A stretch of 64,000 bases of DNA, from positions 1 through 64,000 of IMG/VR virus record IMGVR_UViG_2706796186_000001, one strand, 5' to 3'. The position numbers were made by a program, and so were the translations under genes. Shown here one piece after another: positions 1 through 5,633 of this stretch. Origin of the DNA: a virus. Lineage: Duplodnaviria; Caudoviricetes. The notes beneath the pieces are model-generated. The model saw nothing but the letters and a program-made list of their open reading frames with translations, had not been told where the DNA came from and did not search any database. How positions within the stretch are numbered: the first letter of the stretch is position 1; each line of letters starts with the position of its first letter.

Positions 1-474
1 ATGACCACGATTGCGTACGACGGGAAAACGCTGGCGTCTGATAGCCAGACGACCCAAGACGGTATTCGCCTGTCGAACTCGGCAGTGAAAATCTTTTCAG
101 CCACACATCGTGACTGGGCAGTCGAGGGGAAGCGCATTGTCGCTTTCGGTGTAGCCGGTAATCTCCACGCCGCTAACGACCTCCGCAACGCAATGGAAAC
201 GTTTGCTGGCCACAAAGCCGGTGACCCGTTTGCCAAAGGTGTGACGTTCGCGTTCATCGCGATTGCCGAAGACCGTACCGTGTTTGTTGGCGGGAAGTAT
301 TCCGATGACGACCGTTCGTGGGTCGTACAAGCTGAATCTCCCGTTGCTGTTGGCAGTGGCGGTGATTTCGCCATAGGTGCCATGGCCGCAGGGGCCAAAG
401 CCGAAGACGCTGTGAGGATTGCATCGAAGTTTGATGTGAACACCAACGATTCGGTTACCTCCATCGATTGTTAG
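1..474 (+). CDS. HslV/proteasome-beta-like Ntn-hydrolase (threonine peptidase)
   Basis: N-terminus MTTIA...ASDSQTT (Thr nucleophile after Met removal), GSG motif and terminal D-x-x-T typical of the HslV/proteasome beta fold; the start sits at the window edge. Confidence 0.7.
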   Translation: MTTIAYDGKTLASDSQTTQDGIRLSNSAVKIFSATHRDWAVEGKRIVAFGVAGNLHAANDLRNAMETFAGHKAGDPFAKGVTFAFIAIAEDRTVFVGGKYSDDDRSWVVQAESPVAVGSGGDFAIGAMAAGAKAEDAVRIASKFDVNTNDSVTSIDC

Positions 475-486
475 GGAGTTTCACAG

Positions 487-825
487 ATGTCTTCTCACGA
501 TAAACCGCTGATGCTGATTTACAATATCCAGTACACGCTGGATGAAATCGCCAACGCGTTGGGTAACACCCGGATTCCCAATATCCCGATTCTGAAGGAA
601 GTTGTTAGCAACGTTCAGATTCACCAATGGGATGGGTCTAACCACTGCACCGTAGCCGTCGTTACCACCCGCGGTCATATCTGCACGATGGATACATGGC
701 AAGAACCTAACGCAGAAAACCTGCACCGTGTTCTGAACGGTGCGTTGGAACACGCGTTGAAGAATGCAGCTCGGGCGTGGCTCGGTTCGCAAATCAACGG
801 TCTGTCCGACAACGTAGCGTTCTAA
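487..825 (+). CDS. hypothetical phage protein
   Basis: 112-aa ORF with GGGAG Shine-Dalgarno and phage-like codon usage. Confidence 0.75.
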   Translation: MSSHDKPLMLIYNIQYTLDEIANALGNTRIPNIPILKEVVSNVQIHQWDGSNHCTVAVVTTRGHICTMDTWQEPNAENLHRVLNGALEHALKNAARAWLGSQINGLSDNVAF

Positions 826-858
826 AAAAGTCTAATTACAAGAATACCTTGTGATATG
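826..858 (+). promoter_or_regulatory. putative phage promoter upstream of tRNA cluster 1
   Basis: AAAAGTCTAATTACAAGAATAC (826-847) is repeated exactly at 3997-4018; both copies have a TATG ending 11 nt later. Confidence 0.6.
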
Positions 859-882
859 CTGAGAAGCACGTAAATGAATTTT

Positions 883-959
883 GGGGGAGTAGTTCAATTG
901 GCGAGAGCGTCGGATTCCAAATCCGGTTGTTGCAGGTTCGAGTCCTGTCTCCCCTGCCA
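883..959 (+). tRNA. tRNA-Trp (CCA)
   Basis: GGGGGAG/CTCCCCT acceptor, anticodon loop TTCCAAA, GGTTCGAGTCC T arm, encoded CCA. Confidence 0.95.
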
Positions 960-1022
960 AATTTAGCCAGCAAGAATGTGAGAAACCGCGGAAGACCAAA
1001 TAGTCAATCGCTGGAGAATCTC

Positions 1023-1250
1023 ATGAACCTGTATTTGCTAGAACGTCAAGACGATGTCGGTTACGACGAGTTTGATTCCATAGTCGTTGCAGCTCCTTCG
1101 GAAGCTGTAGCGCGCGCAACGAAGCCCGGCTGGCGAGGGCGTTGGACTGATGTGTATTGCGACGAAGACGGAGTAATCCTGAGATGCGAACTCATTGGTA
1201 CCACGCACTTAGAGGCTGGGGTCGTCCATGCATCGTTCAATGCAGGCTGA
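1023..1250 (+). CDS. small hypothetical phage protein
   Basis: GGAG SD then ATG at 1023 (MNLYLLERQDDVGYDEFDSIVVAA...ASFNAG); the upstream part of the tracked ORF overlaps the tRNA. Confidence 0.75.
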   Translation: MNLYLLERQDDVGYDEFDSIVVAAPSEAVARATKPGWRGRWTDVYCDEDGVILRCELIGTTHLEAGVVHASFNAG

Positions 1251-1280
1251 ATACCGGTGGGCTTCGGCCCACCACACCTT

Positions 1281-1354
1281 GGGGCGCTGGCCGAGTGGTT
1301 AGGCGCTGGATTGCAAATCCTGTTACCGCGGTTCGATTCCGCGGCGTCCCTCCA
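1281..1354 (+). tRNA. tRNA-Cys (GCA)
   Basis: GGGGCGC/GCGTCCC acceptor, U73 discriminator, loop TTGCAAA, GGTTCGATTCC T arm, CCA. Confidence 0.93.
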
Positions 1355-1496
1355 AATCTTCTGTCTCGCCCGACAGATATACTTTACAAAAAAACCCGTA
1401 GAGCCTTTCGGGGGTGAAGCTAGTTGGAGTGGTTGTTCACTCTACGGTCTTCTACTCCTGGGCGCTGGCTCACCCACCTAAAGGATAAAAAGAATT

Positions 1497-1922
1497 ATGT
1501 TCGGTCTTTTCAAAAAACGCGCTAACCGTGCTATGTCTGAAATCAAAAAATTCGACAAACGTGACCTGGCAGAAGCCGTGGTTAACGCCGCTTACCTGAT
1601 TGCGTACGCGGATGGCGAGCTGGAATCTTCTGAGAAATCGAAAATCGATCAGGTGCTGCGTGCCAACCCGGTACTGTCTAACTTCCAGTCCGAGCTGAAC
1701 ACAATTGCTTCTACAATCATCGCTCAGCTGGAAGCGGACATCGACATCGGTCGTCGTGCTGCCCTGCGCCAGATTGCTGATGTGAAAGGCGACCAGCGCG
1801 AGTGTGAAGACGTTCTGGACGTTGCTGTGGCTATTGCCCGTGCTGATGGCGAAATCGAACCGGCAGAAGTTGAAATGCTGAAACAGATCGCCGAAGCGCT
1901 GGGTCTGCGTTACGACGCGTAA
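1497..1922 (+). CDS. terB: TerB-family (tellurite resistance/DjlA N-terminal-like) protein
   Basis: Two A-D-G-x-x-x-x-x-E motifs (IAYADGELESSE, IARADGEIEPAE) in a helical protein; AAGGA SD; high-expression codon bias. Confidence 0.8.
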   Translation: MFGLFKKRANRAMSEIKKFDKRDLAEAVVNAAYLIAYADGELESSEKSKIDQVLRANPVLSNFQSELNTIASTIIAQLEADIDIGRRAALRQIADVKGDQRECEDVLDVAVAIARADGEIEPAEVEMLKQIAEALGLRYDA

Positions 1923-1925
1923 GCC

Positions 1926-2108
1926 ATGAAGCTGAAAACCAAGTTATACATCGGGGCCGCGTTGCTACTGATGCTGCTTGGCAACTTCGTTGGGCGAGCC
2001 TTTACGTTAATCGCCTACGTAGCTGTAATCGGCGTAGTAGCCTATCTGGCCTGGCCTGTCATCAAGAAGTTTGCGGCGAAGTCGCAGGCGAAGGTGAAAG
2101 GCAAGTAG
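1926..2108 (+). CDS. small membrane protein (2 hydrophobic segments)
   Basis: 60 aa with two hydrophobic stretches and a basic tail; starts 3 nt after terB. Confidence 0.7.
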   Translation: MKLKTKLYIGAALLLMLLGNFVGRAFTLIAYVAVIGVVAYLAWPVIKKFAAKSQAKVKGK

Positions 2109-2114
2109 TAATTC

Positions 2115-2150
2115 GGTGCGGGGGTCGTTCCCTCCGCACCACCCTTTTAT
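2115..2150 (+). terminator. putative terminator/attenuating hairpin
   Basis: GGTGCGGGGG/CCTCCGCACC stem followed by a short T run. Confidence 0.45.
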
Positions 2151-2174
2151 TCTCATCTAAAAATAGGTATAACC

Positions 2175-3014
2175 ATGAGAAAGGTGCTTTTCGGAATACT
2201 TGCAGCGTTGACGTTTAGCATGTCCGCAGTCGCGGCAGACGAAGTAGTGATTACCACAGGACAGCAGGGCCTGACCTATAACTCGGTCTATGGCGTTAAT
2301 CTGGCCGGTGCCATCAGCGAGTTCGGTACTCGTGCACGGGTCATCCCGTCGAAGGGGTCGTTAGACAACCTCGATAAAGTTGCCGCCGGTGAAGCCCAGA
2401 TTGGTTTCACGCAGGCAGATGCTTTCCAGTTCTGGCGCGCTAAGCACCCGAACGAAGCGCAGAACGTTGACATCGTCGGTCAGCTGGCCCGTGAATGTGT
2501 CTGGGTCGCTGTCAAGAAAGATGGCAAAGTTAAAGATGCGAAAGATTTAACCGATGGCGTGAAAATCGCAGTCGGTGAACCGGACTCTGGCTCCTACGCC
2601 AGTTGGCAATATCTGCAACAGTTGGTGAAAGAGTATTCCAAAGCGGAAACTTACGCCAAGGGCGGTATCCGTTCGTTGTCCAAAGTGGCAACGGGTGAAT
2701 ACGACGCATTCCTGTGGGTATCTGCGCCGGATAAAAGCAACAAATTCCTCGAAGCGGTCAATCAAGACAGTTCTGGTTTAGAGCTGATTGACATGAGCAC
2801 ATGGAACGTCAACGACAAACTGCCTAACGGCCAGTCTGTGTATACGAAAGAAACGGCCAAGACAGACAAGACCGCGTTCTTCGGTAAGAAAGTTGATGTT
2901 CCGTGCACCACCACACTCGTCGTGGCCAACACTGACGCTGGTGATGATCTGCTCGAAACCGTTTCTACCATCCTCCTGAAAAACAATTCACGAGTGATGG
3001 GGGACAAAAAATAA
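2175..3014 (+). CDS. TAXI-family TRAP solute-binding (periplasmic) protein
   Basis: Sec signal peptide ending AVAA; motifs ITTGQQGLTY, SKGSLDNL, GFTQAD, AVGEPDSGS characteristic of TAXI receptors. Confidence 0.8.
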   Translation: MRKVLFGILAALTFSMSAVAADEVVITTGQQGLTYNSVYGVNLAGAISEFGTRARVIPSKGSLDNLDKVAAGEAQIGFTQADAFQFWRAKHPNEAQNVDIVGQLARECVWVAVKKDGKVKDAKDLTDGVKIAVGEPDSGSYASWQYLQQLVKEYSKAETYAKGGIRSLSKVATGEYDAFLWVSAPDKSNKFLEAVNQDSSGLELIDMSTWNVNDKLPNGQSVYTKETAKTDKTAFFGKKVDVPCTTTLVVANTDAGDDLLETVSTILLKNNSRVMGDKK

Positions 3015-3017
3015 AAA

Positions 3018-3650
3018 TATGTACTGACCCAGTGCATCTTTTCGGGCTGGGTAGGGTTAATGTCCCTACCTGCGCGGTGTTCGTTAAGGCTGGTAACGTT
3101 CGCTAAGACCTATCGCATACCCGTAAGTCGATAGCAGCCGGTTACACAAAGAACTATCCATGTGGTAGGTAACCGACCGTTCACGATCTCATTAGGTGAG
3201 CAAATAATCTATGCAAGGACTTCTAGGATTTGTGCTCGACATGATGGGCAGCTTACGCCGCCTCATCAAGCAGTTACGAATCTGGAAGCTTGCCCATTAC
3301 TGGTTTACAGGCGAAAAGGCATCTCGTGAGAGTGTGCCATGCAAACTGCGTATTTACATTAGTATGTTCACTGCGGTGAGCATAGGTCAAGCCCCGGAAC
3401 GATAAGCCGGTCAGCTACGCCTGTAAAATACAATCTGAAAATCATAATGGGATTAAGTTCCCAGATTTGAAAAGGCGACTGTGTGTCGTCGGCGATAACC
3501 CCCCGTCGTGGACTCGGTTATCCCAAAGGTAATGTGAAAGGGGTTGGTGCTTGGAGGCGCTAAGACCGGCGGATACGCTGGCTCAGAAGAAGAAGAAGTC
3601 CATCAACCCCGTTCTCACCTGAGTAACACCCTTTACAAGGCGTTACTTAT
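3018..3650 (+). ncRNA. putative large, multi-helix non-coding RNA (~630 nt)
   Basis: No credible ORF; more than 12 helices seen by eye, including 3304-3313/3418-3427 and 3540-3549/3601-3610; strand is inferred from the flanking genes. Confidence 0.6.
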
Positions 3651-3671
3651 ATATGCGAAAGCGAGGTGAAC

Positions 3672-3998
3672 ATGGGAATGTATCGTGAAGGCCCTGAAAG
3701 CACGGTGACTCACCGTAATCATGATTACTCTGTGGATGCATTGCTGGATATAGCGGAACGTCATAGCCTCGTTCAAATTCCAGTGTCTAGAATAGAATGG
3801 ATTTTAAACGAGACTACGCTCGATGATGAGCGGGTTAAGAATGCAGATACGGATTATCCAATAATCGTGCTGCACGAAGGAAGTTTGTATATTGTATTAG
3901 ACGGTGCCCATCGCCTTGCGAAGGCGGTAGCCGAAGGCAAAGACACCATCGCAGCCAAGATATTGGTGCCTGCGAATTTACCGAAACCGGTACGATAA
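3672..3998 (+). CDS. ParB/Sulfiredoxin N-terminal domain protein
   Basis: YPIIV...IVLDGAHRLAKA motif (DGxHR); GAGG SD before ATG 3672. Confidence 0.75.
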   Translation: MGMYREGPESTVTHRNHDYSVDALLDIAERHSLVQIPVSRIEWILNETTLDDERVKNADTDYPIIVLHEGSLYIVLDGAHRLAKAVAEGKDTIAAKILVPANLPKPVR

Positions 3999-4029
3999 AA
4001 GTCTAATTACAAGAATACACTGTATTATG
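3997..4029 (+). promoter_or_regulatory. putative phage promoter upstream of tRNA/ncRNA cluster 2
   Basis: Second exact copy of the 22-bp element, with TATG at the same spacing. Confidence 0.6.
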
Positions 4030-4109
4030 TCGGAAACCCGATTTGATGTTGCACAGAGCGTTACGCTGCGGCGTTTGCTGGTGTGCAGGGTTAGGTCGGG
4101 ATTCTGGCA
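4028..4109 (+). ncRNA. long irregular hairpin RNA at the head of the cluster
   Basis: TGTCGGAA/TTCTGGCA, CCCGATTT/AGGTCGGG and TGCAC/GTGCA nested helices. Confidence 0.4.
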
Positions 4110-4116
4110 CCTATTT

Positions 4117-4202
4117 GGCGGGTTACTCAAGCGGTCAACGAGAGCAGACTGTAAATCTGTTGCCTTCGGGCTTCGTAGGTTCAAATCCTTCACACGCCAC
4201 CA
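4117..4202 (+). tRNA. tRNA-Tyr (GTA)
   Basis: Loop CTGTAAA, long variable arm, CCA; one mismatch in the acceptor stem and one in the T stem. Confidence 0.9.
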
Positions 4203-4208
4203 AACAAT

Positions 4209-4428
4209 GGTACCTGTCACAGCAGCCCTTGAGGCTTACGCGATGATGACTGGTCGCCCATTTTACCGGGTAACACATTCCTGCCAGCGCGCTATTGCCG
4301 CGAAGGTTTGCCCCCGGTGTTGTGCGTTATTCGGGTCTACCCACCATCTGCGGATGGTGCGTTGATGTCTCGATATACGCCATAGGGACGCCTTGAGAAC
4401 TCCGTGAAATTCGGAGAGGTACCACCCA
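4209..4428 (+). ncRNA. tRNA-ended structured RNA (~220 nt)
   Basis: GGTACCT/AGGTACC acceptor-like stem stacked on the CTCCG-TGAAATT-CGGAG T-arm, with several internal hairpins. Confidence 0.55.
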
Positions 4429-4430
4429 TT

Positions 4431-4497
4431 CTTGTGTTTCCTTATCCTGAAGACATTCCTAAGACAAATTCATTCATGGTCGAGGAAACACAGAACC
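4431..4497 (+). ncRNA. small RNA motif, copy 1
   Basis: TGTGTTTCCT/AGGAAACACA stem enclosing sequence shared with 5563-5633. Confidence 0.55.
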
Positions 4498-4503
4498 TAT
4501 TCA

Positions 4504-4579
4504 GGTGCTATCGTCTAGTGGCCGAGGATACTACCCTGTCACGGTAGAGACCGGAGTTCGATTCTCCGTAGCACCGCCA
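4504..4579 (+). tRNA. tRNA-Asp (GTC)
   Basis: Canonical cloverleaf, loop CTGTCAC, G73, CCA. Confidence 0.95.
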
Positions 4580-4587
4580 TTTTCAAA

Positions 4588-4663
4588 TGCGTCTTAGCTC
4601 AGTTGGTAGAGCGCACCCCTGATAAGGGTGAGGCCACTGGTTCAAGTCCAGTAGATGCAACCA
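4588..4663 (+). tRNA. tRNA-Ile (GAT)
   Basis: Canonical cloverleaf, loop CTGATAA, CCA. Confidence 0.95.
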
Positions 4664-4670
4664 GTATTGC

Positions 4671-4747
4671 ATTCCCGTCATCTAGTTGGTCCAGGATACG
4701 ACACTTTCACTGTCGGTACACGAGTTCAAATCTCGTCGGGAATACCA
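4671..4747 (+). tRNA. tRNA-Glu (TTC)
   Basis: ATTCCCG/CGGGAAT acceptor, loop CTTTCAC, CCA. Confidence 0.93.
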
Positions 4748-4752
4748 TTTGT

Positions 4753-4843
4753 AGAGAATTGACTGAGTTGGTTTAAGGTGCTCCCCTGCTAAGGGAGTGT
4801 ATGCGAAAGTGTACCATTGGTTCGAATCCAATATTCTCTGCCA
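4753..4843 (+). tRNA. tRNA-Ser (GCT)
   Basis: AGAGAAT/ATTCTCT acceptor, loop CTGCTAA, long variable arm, G73, CCA. Confidence 0.93.
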
Positions 4844-5019
4844 TGTTCTCTTGCTGTGGGAAATAGAAGCGAACGTAGAAACGCCGGTTAGCTCAAAGCT
4901 TAGAGCGTCTCATCTTCGGATGAGAAGGTTGGGGGCGCAACCCGAAATCCCTATCGGCAACGGCCTGCTTGTCAGGATTAGAAACATCTACGTGGATGGG
5001 TACTTCTACAGCAAGAACA
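4844..5019 (+). ncRNA. structured RNA containing an internal tRNA-like domain
   Basis: 13-bp closing helix 4849-4861/5004-5016 enclosing a tRNA-like module at 4882-4960. Confidence 0.55.
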
Positions 5020-5224
5020 AAACAGTGGGAGCATTGTCCACTGTGACACCGGCAAAGGTTTCGACCTTGCGGGTTGGGCGGAAGCCCGATGTTCCCCCGA
5101 ACGCTGGCCTTCTGGCCAATACAGTGAAAGCTTACCCTTGCCGATGATCACCTCTTCTGCTGCTGCCAACACACTGTATAACCAGAATCAGTCCTGCCTT
5201 AAATGGCAAGCGTTCACCCTTTAC

Positions 5225-5302
5225 GTTTCCTCAAGGCGGCTTGGGGTGTTATCTCTCGGCTCTGTTGGGTAACATCGTGGTTCAACTCCATGGGAAACAC
5301 CA
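5225..5302 (+). ncRNA. tRNA-like four-helix RNA ending in ACCA
   Basis: GTTTCCT/GGGAAAC acceptor, GG-TTCAACT-CC T loop, 10-bp arm with a 12-nt loop in place of an anticodon arm. Confidence 0.55.
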
Positions 5303-5308
5303 AACAAT

Positions 5309-5400
5309 GGCTCCGTAGCTAAATCGGTAGAGGCAGACTTTAATTAGTTCTCCAACGATTTTATAATCGCGTGGTGTAGGTTCAAGTCCTACCGGAGCAA
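5309..5400 (+). pseudogene. degenerate tRNA (Leu-TAA-like)
   Basis: Good D and T arms and a long variable arm; broken anticodon stem, G1:A72 mismatch, no encoded CCA. Confidence 0.55.
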
Positions 5401-5477
5401 GAGCACTGCTGTTAAGTTGGTTAACACCCGACCCATACTCGGATATTCGCACGTTCGATTCGTGCCAGTGCTCGCCC
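5401..5477 (+). tRNA. atypical tRNA with CAT anticodon (8-bp acceptor stem)
   Basis: GAGCACTG/CAGTGCTC, TGTTAA/TTAACA D stem, loop CCCATAC, GCACG-TTCGATT-CGTGC T arm; ends GCCC. Confidence 0.6.
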
Positions 5478-5484
5478 TTATTTA

Positions 5485-5560
5485 GACTCTGTAGTTCAGT
5501 TGGTAGAACGGTGGACTGTTAATCCATATGTCGCAGGTTCGAGTCCTGCCAGAGTCGCCA
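5485..5560 (+). tRNA. tRNA-Asn (GTT)
   Basis: Canonical cloverleaf, loop CTGTTAA, G73, CCA. Confidence 0.95.
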
Positions 5561-5562
5561 CA

Positions 5563-5633
5563 TTTTGCATTGCCCGAGTCCCGAATGACATTCCGGAAAA
5601 ATATCATCCATGGTCACGGGCAGTGCAGAACCA
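5563..5633 (+). ncRNA. small RNA motif, copy 2
   Basis: TGCATTGCCCG/CGGGCAGTGCA stem enclosing the shared motif; ends GAACCA. Confidence 0.55.

Follow-up and report, generated by a model that had tools for sequence, protein, structure and literature searches.

Covariation supports a large structured RNA with an embedded small reading frame in the tRNA island of SPN3US-like jumbo phages

Introduction

What is encoded by the roughly 630 nt that separate a TAXI-family solute-receptor gene from a small ParB-like gene near the start of an SPN3US-like jumbo-phage genome? The stretch of DNA analyzed here (the window) covers the opening 64 kb of a genome of 240,761 bp whose nearest relatives are the Erwinia phages pEa_SNUABM_43 and pEa_SNUABM_42 of the genus Machinavirus (blastn, 96.9% identity across positions 2900-3800). 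An earlier note, made from the letters of the window alone, read positions 3018-3650 as an ornate noncoding RNA of a possibly new class. To our knowledge, the large structured RNAs reported from bacteria and phages are very few (ROOL, GOLLD, OLE, raiA, and a small number of others), and we know of no selected reading frame embedded in the known ornate RNAs. ROOL and GOLLD are large (~0.5- to 0.8-kb) multidomain ornate RNAs that are often phage encoded and often lie beside tRNA genes; as far as we know, neither has a conserved open reading frame (ORF). Here, we ask whether the locus encodes a structured RNA, a peptide, or both.

Results

The region lies between the TAXI gene (2175-3014; Pfam NMT1_3) and the ParB-like gene (3666-3998; phrog_17560), with tRNA genes for Trp (883), Cys (1281), and Tyr (from 4117) around it on the same strand (Rfam and ARAGORN). 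Both flanking genes are complete, and the structured RNA interrupts no gene. By blastn, 45 phage records matched the region, and exact-motif scans of IMG/VR and metagenomes added further homologues; once duplicates were removed, 28 distinct versions remained, from Machinavirus, Seoulvirus (SPN3US and relatives), Erskinevirus (Asesino and phiEaH2), and Wellingtonvirus. All 28 place the element in a tRNA island and on the tRNA strand; for the window, the earlier note had already pointed to a tRNA cluster. The neighbors vary from phage to phage: downstream lies a ParB-like gene, a small ORF, or a tRNA, and upstream the TAXI gene, other genes, or a tRNA. The 3' end is adjoined by tRNAs in Asesino, phiEaH2, and uvig15 (in Asesino, tRNA-Gly begins 7 to 8 nt past the last helix, and the tRNA of uvig15 is similarly close), and uvig10 has a tRNA ~80 nt upstream of the element. 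In most homologues, the locus is unannotated, as in the public records of SPN3US, Caitlin, and pEa_4, or has only a short "hypothetical protein" laid across it.

Covariance models of the 3' domain (R1) and of the 5' domain (R2) each gave one significant match in the phage's own genome, where the element is thus single copy. Model R1 found no match in phiKZ, Ea35-70, or CR5, also with filters off on the Ea35-70 locus, and R2 found none in phiKZ or CR5. An exact 3'-domain motif occurred in 0 of 185,579 prokaryote genomes. A blastn search against 5,426 complete E. coli genomes returned no similarity, so there is no sequence-level mimic of a host RNA there.

Next, we looked into whether the region folds and whether its helices are conserved. 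Every helix motif quoted in the earlier note is found where it had been placed, and both strands of a 651-nt stretch folded better than their dinucleotide shuffles (z = -5.0 for the plus strand and -8.25 for the minus strand, with only 20 shuffles per strand). RNAalifold, applied to an alignment of 27 homologues (A1), predicted 71 pairs, of which 30 showed compensatory double changes. We curated this prediction into a 76-pair model by removing dubious long-range pairs (alignment columns 96-97/572-573 and 335-337/361-363) and adding a long-range closing helix and a GNRA hairpin. Standard pairs filled 95.3% of the 2046 cells of this model, compared with 83.0 ± 0.5% in shuffles, and compensatory double changes occurred at 32 of the 76 pairs, a number that none of 500 shuffles reached. 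The covariation score was 0.363, against 0.140 in shuffled alignments and 0.035 to 0.067 when the 3' partners were slid by 1 to 3 columns. G·U cells outnumbered A·C cells (143 versus 19), which indicates that it is the plus strand that folds. The helices have been kept by compensatory evolution across four phage genera, with compensated pairs exceeding all controls. Two further pairings were considered and dropped: a kissing contact between ACACA (3144-3148) and a UGUGU loop (3481-3485), as UGUGU is missing in three lineages, and a pairing of AAUCU with GGAUU (3432-3436/3450-3454), for which support was weak.

Alignment A1, the covariation test, and models R1 and R2 together delimit a conserved element of ~563 nt on the plus strand (3048..3610), shorter than the 633 nt of the original reading. 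It begins with the 5' domain (3048-3180), opened by hairpin H1 (3048..3072, plus strand; nine pairs, five with double changes), which has an invariant GGG/CCC top and a 7-nt loop, YURRURU. The ACCCAG/CTGGGT helix (3027/3047; 3027..3052, plus strand) proposed upstream did not hold up: it is absent in other clades, and it overlaps and competes with the covariation-supported H1. Behind H1 lies a junction domain (3074..3180, plus strand) in which P2, a 5-bp helix of 3074-3078 with 3176-3180, encloses an optional hairpin H1b (3082-3098), H2, and H3. P2 was found by eye; a script paired all five positions in 20 of 23 sequences, the remaining three (uvig13, uvig15, and uvig18) pair after the correct CCG is chosen by eye, and the outer pairs covary. 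The proposed CTATCG/CGATAG helix (3110/3129) corresponds to H2 (3110..3134, plus strand) and gained strong support, with double changes at 6 of its 7 pairs and 99.5% pairing; its loop of 11 to 13 nt (..ACC..UAAGUC) is conserved. Likewise, CGGTTAC/GTAACCG (3139/3169) covaries as part of H3 (3139..3175, plus strand; 7 of 10 pairs with double changes), a hairpin whose internal loop, ACACAAAG (3144-3151), is near invariant and whose tip varies in length, with insertions in pEa6, mg20, and mg21.

The linker that follows the 5' domain is poorly conserved and contains the first half of an ORF. Read from the sequence, a small hairpin CUCA..UGAG (3188..3200, plus strand) with weakly supported pairing holds an SD-like AGGUGAG 11 nt before the AUG. 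The helix ATGGGCAGCTT/AAGCTTGCCCAT (3244/3286), listed in the earlier note, is specific to the window's subgroup.

The same note had stated that the region holds no credible ORF. On the contrary, a 64-amino-acid frame (3211..3405, plus strand) is open in 28 of 28 homologues, which come from ~7 divergent lineages, with lengths of 55 to 69 codons. In all clades, it starts with an AUG in the same area, with SD-like purines 5 to 11 nt upstream, and it ends with the same invariant UAA. Pairwise dN/dS values were below 1 (between two versions, metagenomic and GenBank, for example, 7 of 7 differences were synonymous), and the ratio was lowest in the frame's own register in four clades (0.13, 0.61, 0.45, and 0.44, compared with 0.69 to 2.53 for the other two frames); in the C-terminal half, dN/dS is confounded by RNA-level constraint, and the N-terminal half evolves fast, with a ratio of up to 0.61. 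Summed over clades, variable sites at codon positions 1, 2, and 3 numbered 75, 47, and 89, position 2 being the least variable. By these substitution patterns, the frame is conserved, is under purifying selection in its own register, and is maintained by selection. The picture of an ornate noncoding RNA thus survives as regards a large, multidomain, conserved structure and fails as regards "noncoding," since a selected ORF is embedded in it.

The peptide matches the phrog_26199 HMM over its full length (residues 1 to 64 of 64, E = 1e-49), a PHROG without an assigned function. It belongs to no Pfam family, and a search of 5.8 billion proteins and of the ESM Atlas returned only its own clusters. 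AlphaFold predicted one long helix (residues 2 to 33, pLDDT of ~80) followed by a basic C-terminal tail of low confidence. This tail is encoded by the same nucleotides that form the helices of the central domain.

The central domain (3304..3427, plus strand), seen in single-sequence folds and in the alignment, is a multibranch structure closed by the pairing of 3304-3313 with 3418-3427, and it encloses the last ~34 codons of the ORF and the stop codon. A closed multihairpin domain appeared in the single-sequence folds of 7 of 10 representatives, with four hairpins in the window type, pEa29, and pEa11; the domain folds differently in pEa4, uvig10, and uvig13. The closing helix TTTACAGGCG/CGCCTGTAAA (3304/3418), which had been singled out as a perfect long-range helix, is invariant in 20 of 27 sequences but is replaced in the Asesino-type clade by a shorter GGUU/AACC closure. 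Inside it, and within the ORF, a GNRA-capped hairpin with a GUGA loop (3318..3338, plus strand) changes from CUC/GAG to CCC/GGG elsewhere, with loops GUGA, GUAA, and GCAA. The hairpin UAUGUUCAC-UGCG-GUGAGCAUA (3363..3384, plus strand; TATGTTCAC..GTGAGCATA in DNA letters), also within the ORF and already noticed in the first reading, keeps its position in other clades with unrelated sequences. A third hairpin, AGC-CCGG..CCGG-GCU (3390..3416, plus strand), is 100% paired, with one pair alternating between GC and AU, and holds the invariant UAA stop of the ORF (3403-3405) in its loop. Because the tail codons form the central helices and the stop lies in this hairpin loop, a translating ribosome must unfold the domain.

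The 3' domain (3428-3610, plus strand) consists of two small hairpins, an interchangeable hairpin, and a long irregular hairpin. The first small hairpin, UGGGA-UUAAGU-UCCCA (3448..3463, plus strand), is nearly invariant and 100% paired, with no double changes, and the second, GGCGAC-UGUGU-GUCGUC (3474..3490, plus strand), has double changes at 3 of 5 pairs. The long hairpin (3540..3610, plus strand; 22 pairs, 7 with double changes), whose helix GGGGTTGGTG/CATCAACCCC (3540/3601) had been proposed and proved to covary, is the best-conserved part of the RNA: its invariant internal loops (GGUGCUUGGAG.. and ..GAAGAAGUCCAUC), below a GAUA-capped tip, are identical in four genera. In the pEa4 clade, noncanonical CGCU/AGAA in this hairpin becomes canonical GGUU/AACC. 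Identity to other genera peaks in the 3' domain (61 to 83%) and is lowest in the N-terminal half of the ORF (33 to 46% outside Machinavirus).

Two further observations concern the long hairpin. In two IMG/VR phages (L041:1884-1945, and the reverse strand of L040), unrelated sequence replaces its otherwise invariant interior while the closing helix GGAGGGGAUG...CAUCCCCUCC stays the same. The purine run AGAAGAAGAAG (3583-3585) has one extra AGA triplet in the window, and the same occurred independently in Salmonella phage SPFM4.

The GATAACC/GGTTATC hairpin (3494/3516) of the first reading is also real, and comparison of clades shows it to be a peripheral element that is interchangeable (3494..3522, plus strand; type A in the window). 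In pSal-SNUABM-04 (pSal04, L029) and the metagenomic mg21 (L021), which are ~94% identical to the window elsewhere, an SPN3US-type hairpin takes the place of 3494-3522, and a third type is found in pEa11, uvig18, and uvig11. Three hairpin types circulating among clades suggest recombination of RNA modules. Optional hairpins and tips of variable length are found all along the element; together with the swapped peripheral modules, they are traits typical of an RNA.

A search with the 5' domain alone (model R2) gave a clear homologue in two phages of Agricanvirus, namely, Ea35-70 (77 bits, E = 4e-22) and AH06 (68 bits). In these phages, compensation of P2 is complete (GUAAU/AUUAC), and the 5' domain heads an unannotated, conserved, and apparently structured region of ~930 nt with visible compensatory changes (Ea35-70, L045:1501-2340, corresponding to NC_023557 167306-168145; AH06, L051:439-1905). 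This region has no tRNA within 3 kb and no homologue of the 3' domain, and it lacks a conserved ORF; one frame of 27 codons in Ea35-70 is without an AUG in AH06. The presence of the 5' domain without the ORF shows that it can stand apart as an RNA module, independently of the peptide, an argument for placing the RNA rather than the peptide at the core of the system.

The Agricanvirus region has further features of its own. At L045:~2016-2176 of Ea35-70 and in the aligned part of AH06, we noticed a type I hammerhead-like arrangement, ACUCC-CUGAUGAG-stem II-CGAAAC-stem III (with a ~95-nt insert)-GUC|GGAGU. AH06 retains all core bases of this candidate, and stem III is compensated (GAGG/CCUU to GGGG/CCCC); Rfam did not report it at an E value of ≤10. 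No hammerhead core was found within 3018-3650 of the window. In AH06, a 172-amino-acid gene with weak P-loop/AAA matches only (AH06_219, L051:720-1238) is inserted between the 5' domain and the remaining structured region, and it is absent from Ea35-70.

We also evaluated the ends of the element and possible signals around it. The TATG at its proposed start, taken for a phiKZ late start motif, is not conserved: the TAXI stop codon and H1 are only ~25 to 35 nt apart in phages of the Asesino, uvig13, uvig15, and uvig18 types, and among the clades compared, neither TATG nor another promoter-like motif is conserved upstream. At the other end, the terminal hairpin proposed at 3621-3648 occurs in the closest relatives only and lies outside the conserved RNA; this subgroup-specific hairpin is followed by TTATATATG (3621..3655, plus strand), upstream of the ParB-like gene. 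The 9-mer TTATATATG is not enriched within the window, and a scan for sigma-70 promoters and terminators was uninformative. In the window's subgroup, the ParB-like gene, preceded by a promoter-like TATATATG, is placed between the RNA and tRNA-Tyr.

Elsewhere in the island, a TAT(T)ATGTCGG motif is conserved in all clades ~90 nt upstream of tRNA-Tyr (~4020-4040 in the window; matching sites in L002-L008) and is followed by conserved hairpins; this arrangement resembles a promoter and leader for the tRNA cluster. The gene-free 300-nt gap between tRNA-Tyr and tRNA-Asp (4203-4503) has a strong folding signal (z = -4.16, equaled by 0 of 100 shuffles) and may hold additional structured RNAs of the tRNA island; that of the gap at 4844-5307 is weaker (z = -1.9).

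A hint of expression came from a small rRNA-depleted metatranscriptome (run X19), in which a 175-nt contig corresponds to 3383-3557 with 2 mismatches and nothing else of 2400-4400 is covered. This single low-depth contig is a weak hint that the RNA is expressed and could be DNA carry-over. Run X20 contained only fragments near the tRNA and the gene end, and runs X15 and X16 are probably DNA; stretches that lack RNA coverage are uninformative.

Finally, we compared the RNA with known families. Rfam cmscan at gathering thresholds reported only tRNAs, and at E values of ≤10 it gave no match in 2900-3800 (901 nt), in agreement with the failure of the earlier note to match the region to ROOL or GOLLD. 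The covariance models of ROOL (RF03087) and GOLLD (RF01998) are among those without a match; RNase P RNA, tmRNA, group I and II introns, and known self-cleaving ribozymes have no Rfam match either, and no gene is interrupted as it would be by an intron. ARAGORN found tRNAs and no tmRNA in 1-10000. The 5' and 3' ends do not form a tRNA-like domain with a T arm and CCA, the 3' helix being local, and the frame is not a tag frame lacking a start codon or SD, as AUG and SD-like purines are present in all clades. Resemblances to RNase P CR-I, SRP, the 23S GTPase center, an Hfq (ARN)n site, and an anti-SD site were dropped for want of Rfam support. We found no description of this RNA in the literature, and it may sit unnamed in a catalogue of 10,006 viral candidates (PMC10690425).

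Discussion

On the evidence of comparative sequence analysis, it is reasonably likely that the locus encodes a clade-specific, three-domain structured RNA of ~565 nt in SPN3US-like jumbo phages that is also the mRNA of a small basic peptide, that is, a dual-function RNA. It is most likely a new RNA family, matching no described one. The RNA rather than the protein appears to be the main target of selection, given the identity of the 3' domain compared with that of the N-terminal half of the ORF and the occurrence of the 5' domain without the ORF in Agricanvirus.

The locus might be an ordinary small-protein mRNA in which the 5' and 3' domains are cis-regulatory untranslated regions (UTRs); the SD would be hidden by a leader of the riboswitch-like or protein-binding kind, the 3' UTR would be stabilizing, and together they would control synthesis of the 64-amino-acid peptide. 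A structured junction domain does lie directly upstream of an SD-like run able to pair in a small hairpin, and the ORF is conserved in every SPN3US-like homologue. Nevertheless, we judge this unlikely, since regulation would then serve the part of the locus that is conserved least, the stop codon is followed by ~200 nt of near-invariant structure, and the Agricanvirus 5' domain has no conserved ORF behind it. For the same reasons, we prefer a trans-acting stable RNA, which may form a ribonucleoprotein (RNP) with the peptide it encodes, to two UTRs. The opposite simplification, a purely noncoding ornate RNA with the open frame as a by-product, would suit the strong covariation, the absence of any protein family beyond an unnamed PHROG, and a C-terminal half that is predicted with low confidence and whose sequence tracks the RNA helices. 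It seems improbable to us in view of a frame that stays open for 55 to 69 codons in every version and ~7 divergent lineages, with the same stop, an AUG and SD-like purines, frame-specific dN/dS, and codon-position periodicity.

The genomic setting invites other explanations. The element is always in a tRNA island on the tRNA strand and sometimes abuts a tRNA, as would a leader or spacer in a tRNA precursor that acts in cis to guide how the tRNAs downstream are processed or expressed; we give this little credence, since the neighbors differ between phages, tRNA-Tyr has a separate promoter-like motif before it, and no tRNA occurs within 3 kb of the 5'-domain relative in Agricanvirus. In its size, phage origin, and tRNA neighborhood, the RNA recalls ROOL and GOLLD, but a divergent member of these families, or of RNase P RNA, tmRNA, or group I or II introns, is highly improbable with no Rfam score at E values of ≤10, no tmRNA called by ARAGORN, no interrupted gene, and no blastn similarity in the E. 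coli genomes searched. We attach next to no weight to a DNA-level element (an origin, a packaging site, or a protein-binding array): the minus strand also folds better than shuffles, but compensation preserves pairing, G·U exceeds A·C on the plus strand only, and the GNRA loops are read on that strand.

Known RNAs offer several likenesses to the proposed dual-function RNA. It shares with ROOL and GOLLD an ornate multidomain build in addition to size and setting, and it differs from them in matching neither model, in its occurrence in enterobacterial jumbo phages, and in its conserved ORF. The stable RNAs C and D of phage T4 (species 1 and 2; ~120 to 140 nt, no ORF) lie in the T4 tRNA cluster and are presumably matured with the tRNAs; they too are structured non-tRNA RNAs of a phage tRNA cluster, although far shorter and ORF-less. 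E. coli rtT RNA (Tpr; RF00391), which is ~170 nt long and made of repeats, is released from the transcript of the tRNA-Tyr (tyrT) operon downstream of the tRNA and contains a frame for a small basic peptide. The tRNA-Tyr neighborhood and such a frame are common to both, whereas rtT is much less structured and lies downstream of its tRNA, the present RNA lying upstream and having no Rfam match to it. The likeness to ROOL, GOLLD, T4 RNAs C and D, and rtT/Tpr is one of lifestyle and not of sequence or fold. The dual-function RNAs RNAIII/hld of S. aureus, SgrS/SgrT, and SR1/SR1P act by base-pairing, and tmRNA acts by trans-translation; in these, too, a structured RNA also templates a short peptide, and, as in tmRNA, part of the present frame and its stop lie inside helices. 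They have no homology to the present RNA, and their modes of action are not seen here.

How such an RNA might be made and used can be outlined. The lack of a conserved promoter of its own and a tRNA 7 to 8 nt past the 3' helix in some relatives suggest that it may be cut from a longer transcript by tRNA-processing enzymes; this Asesino-style release cannot apply in the window, where the ParB-like gene and TATATATG intervene before tRNA-Tyr. Acting in trans, the folded RNA would be a stable scaffold or decoy that works by way of its invariant loops and its long 3' hairpin. Each molecule would be either folded or translated, as a ribosome must melt the central domain, and the peptide, with its long helix and basic tail, probably works with or binds the folded RNA.

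A bolder version of this reading is possible, and we hold it only tentatively. It would make the RNA part of an undescribed modular class of ornate RNAs of nucleus-forming enterobacterial jumbo phages, whose 5' module is shared with the ORF-less, apparently hammerhead-containing Agricanvirus RNA of ~0.7 to 0.9 kb and whose SPN3US-type member, an RNP with its own helical basic peptide, is directed in trans at host translation, tRNA metabolism, or an RNA-targeting defense. If the RNP reading is true, the swappable peripheral hairpins would be arms-race surfaces.

The locus is misannotated in public records. It belongs to jumbo phages that are in culture and accessible to genetics (SPN3US, Asesino, and the pEa_SNUABM series, among others), and its RNA combines clear covariation with a modular build and an embedded frame under selection. 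How a nucleus-forming phage uses a large nonribosomal RNA can be tested directly here, and one can also ask how folding and translation of one molecule are reconciled.
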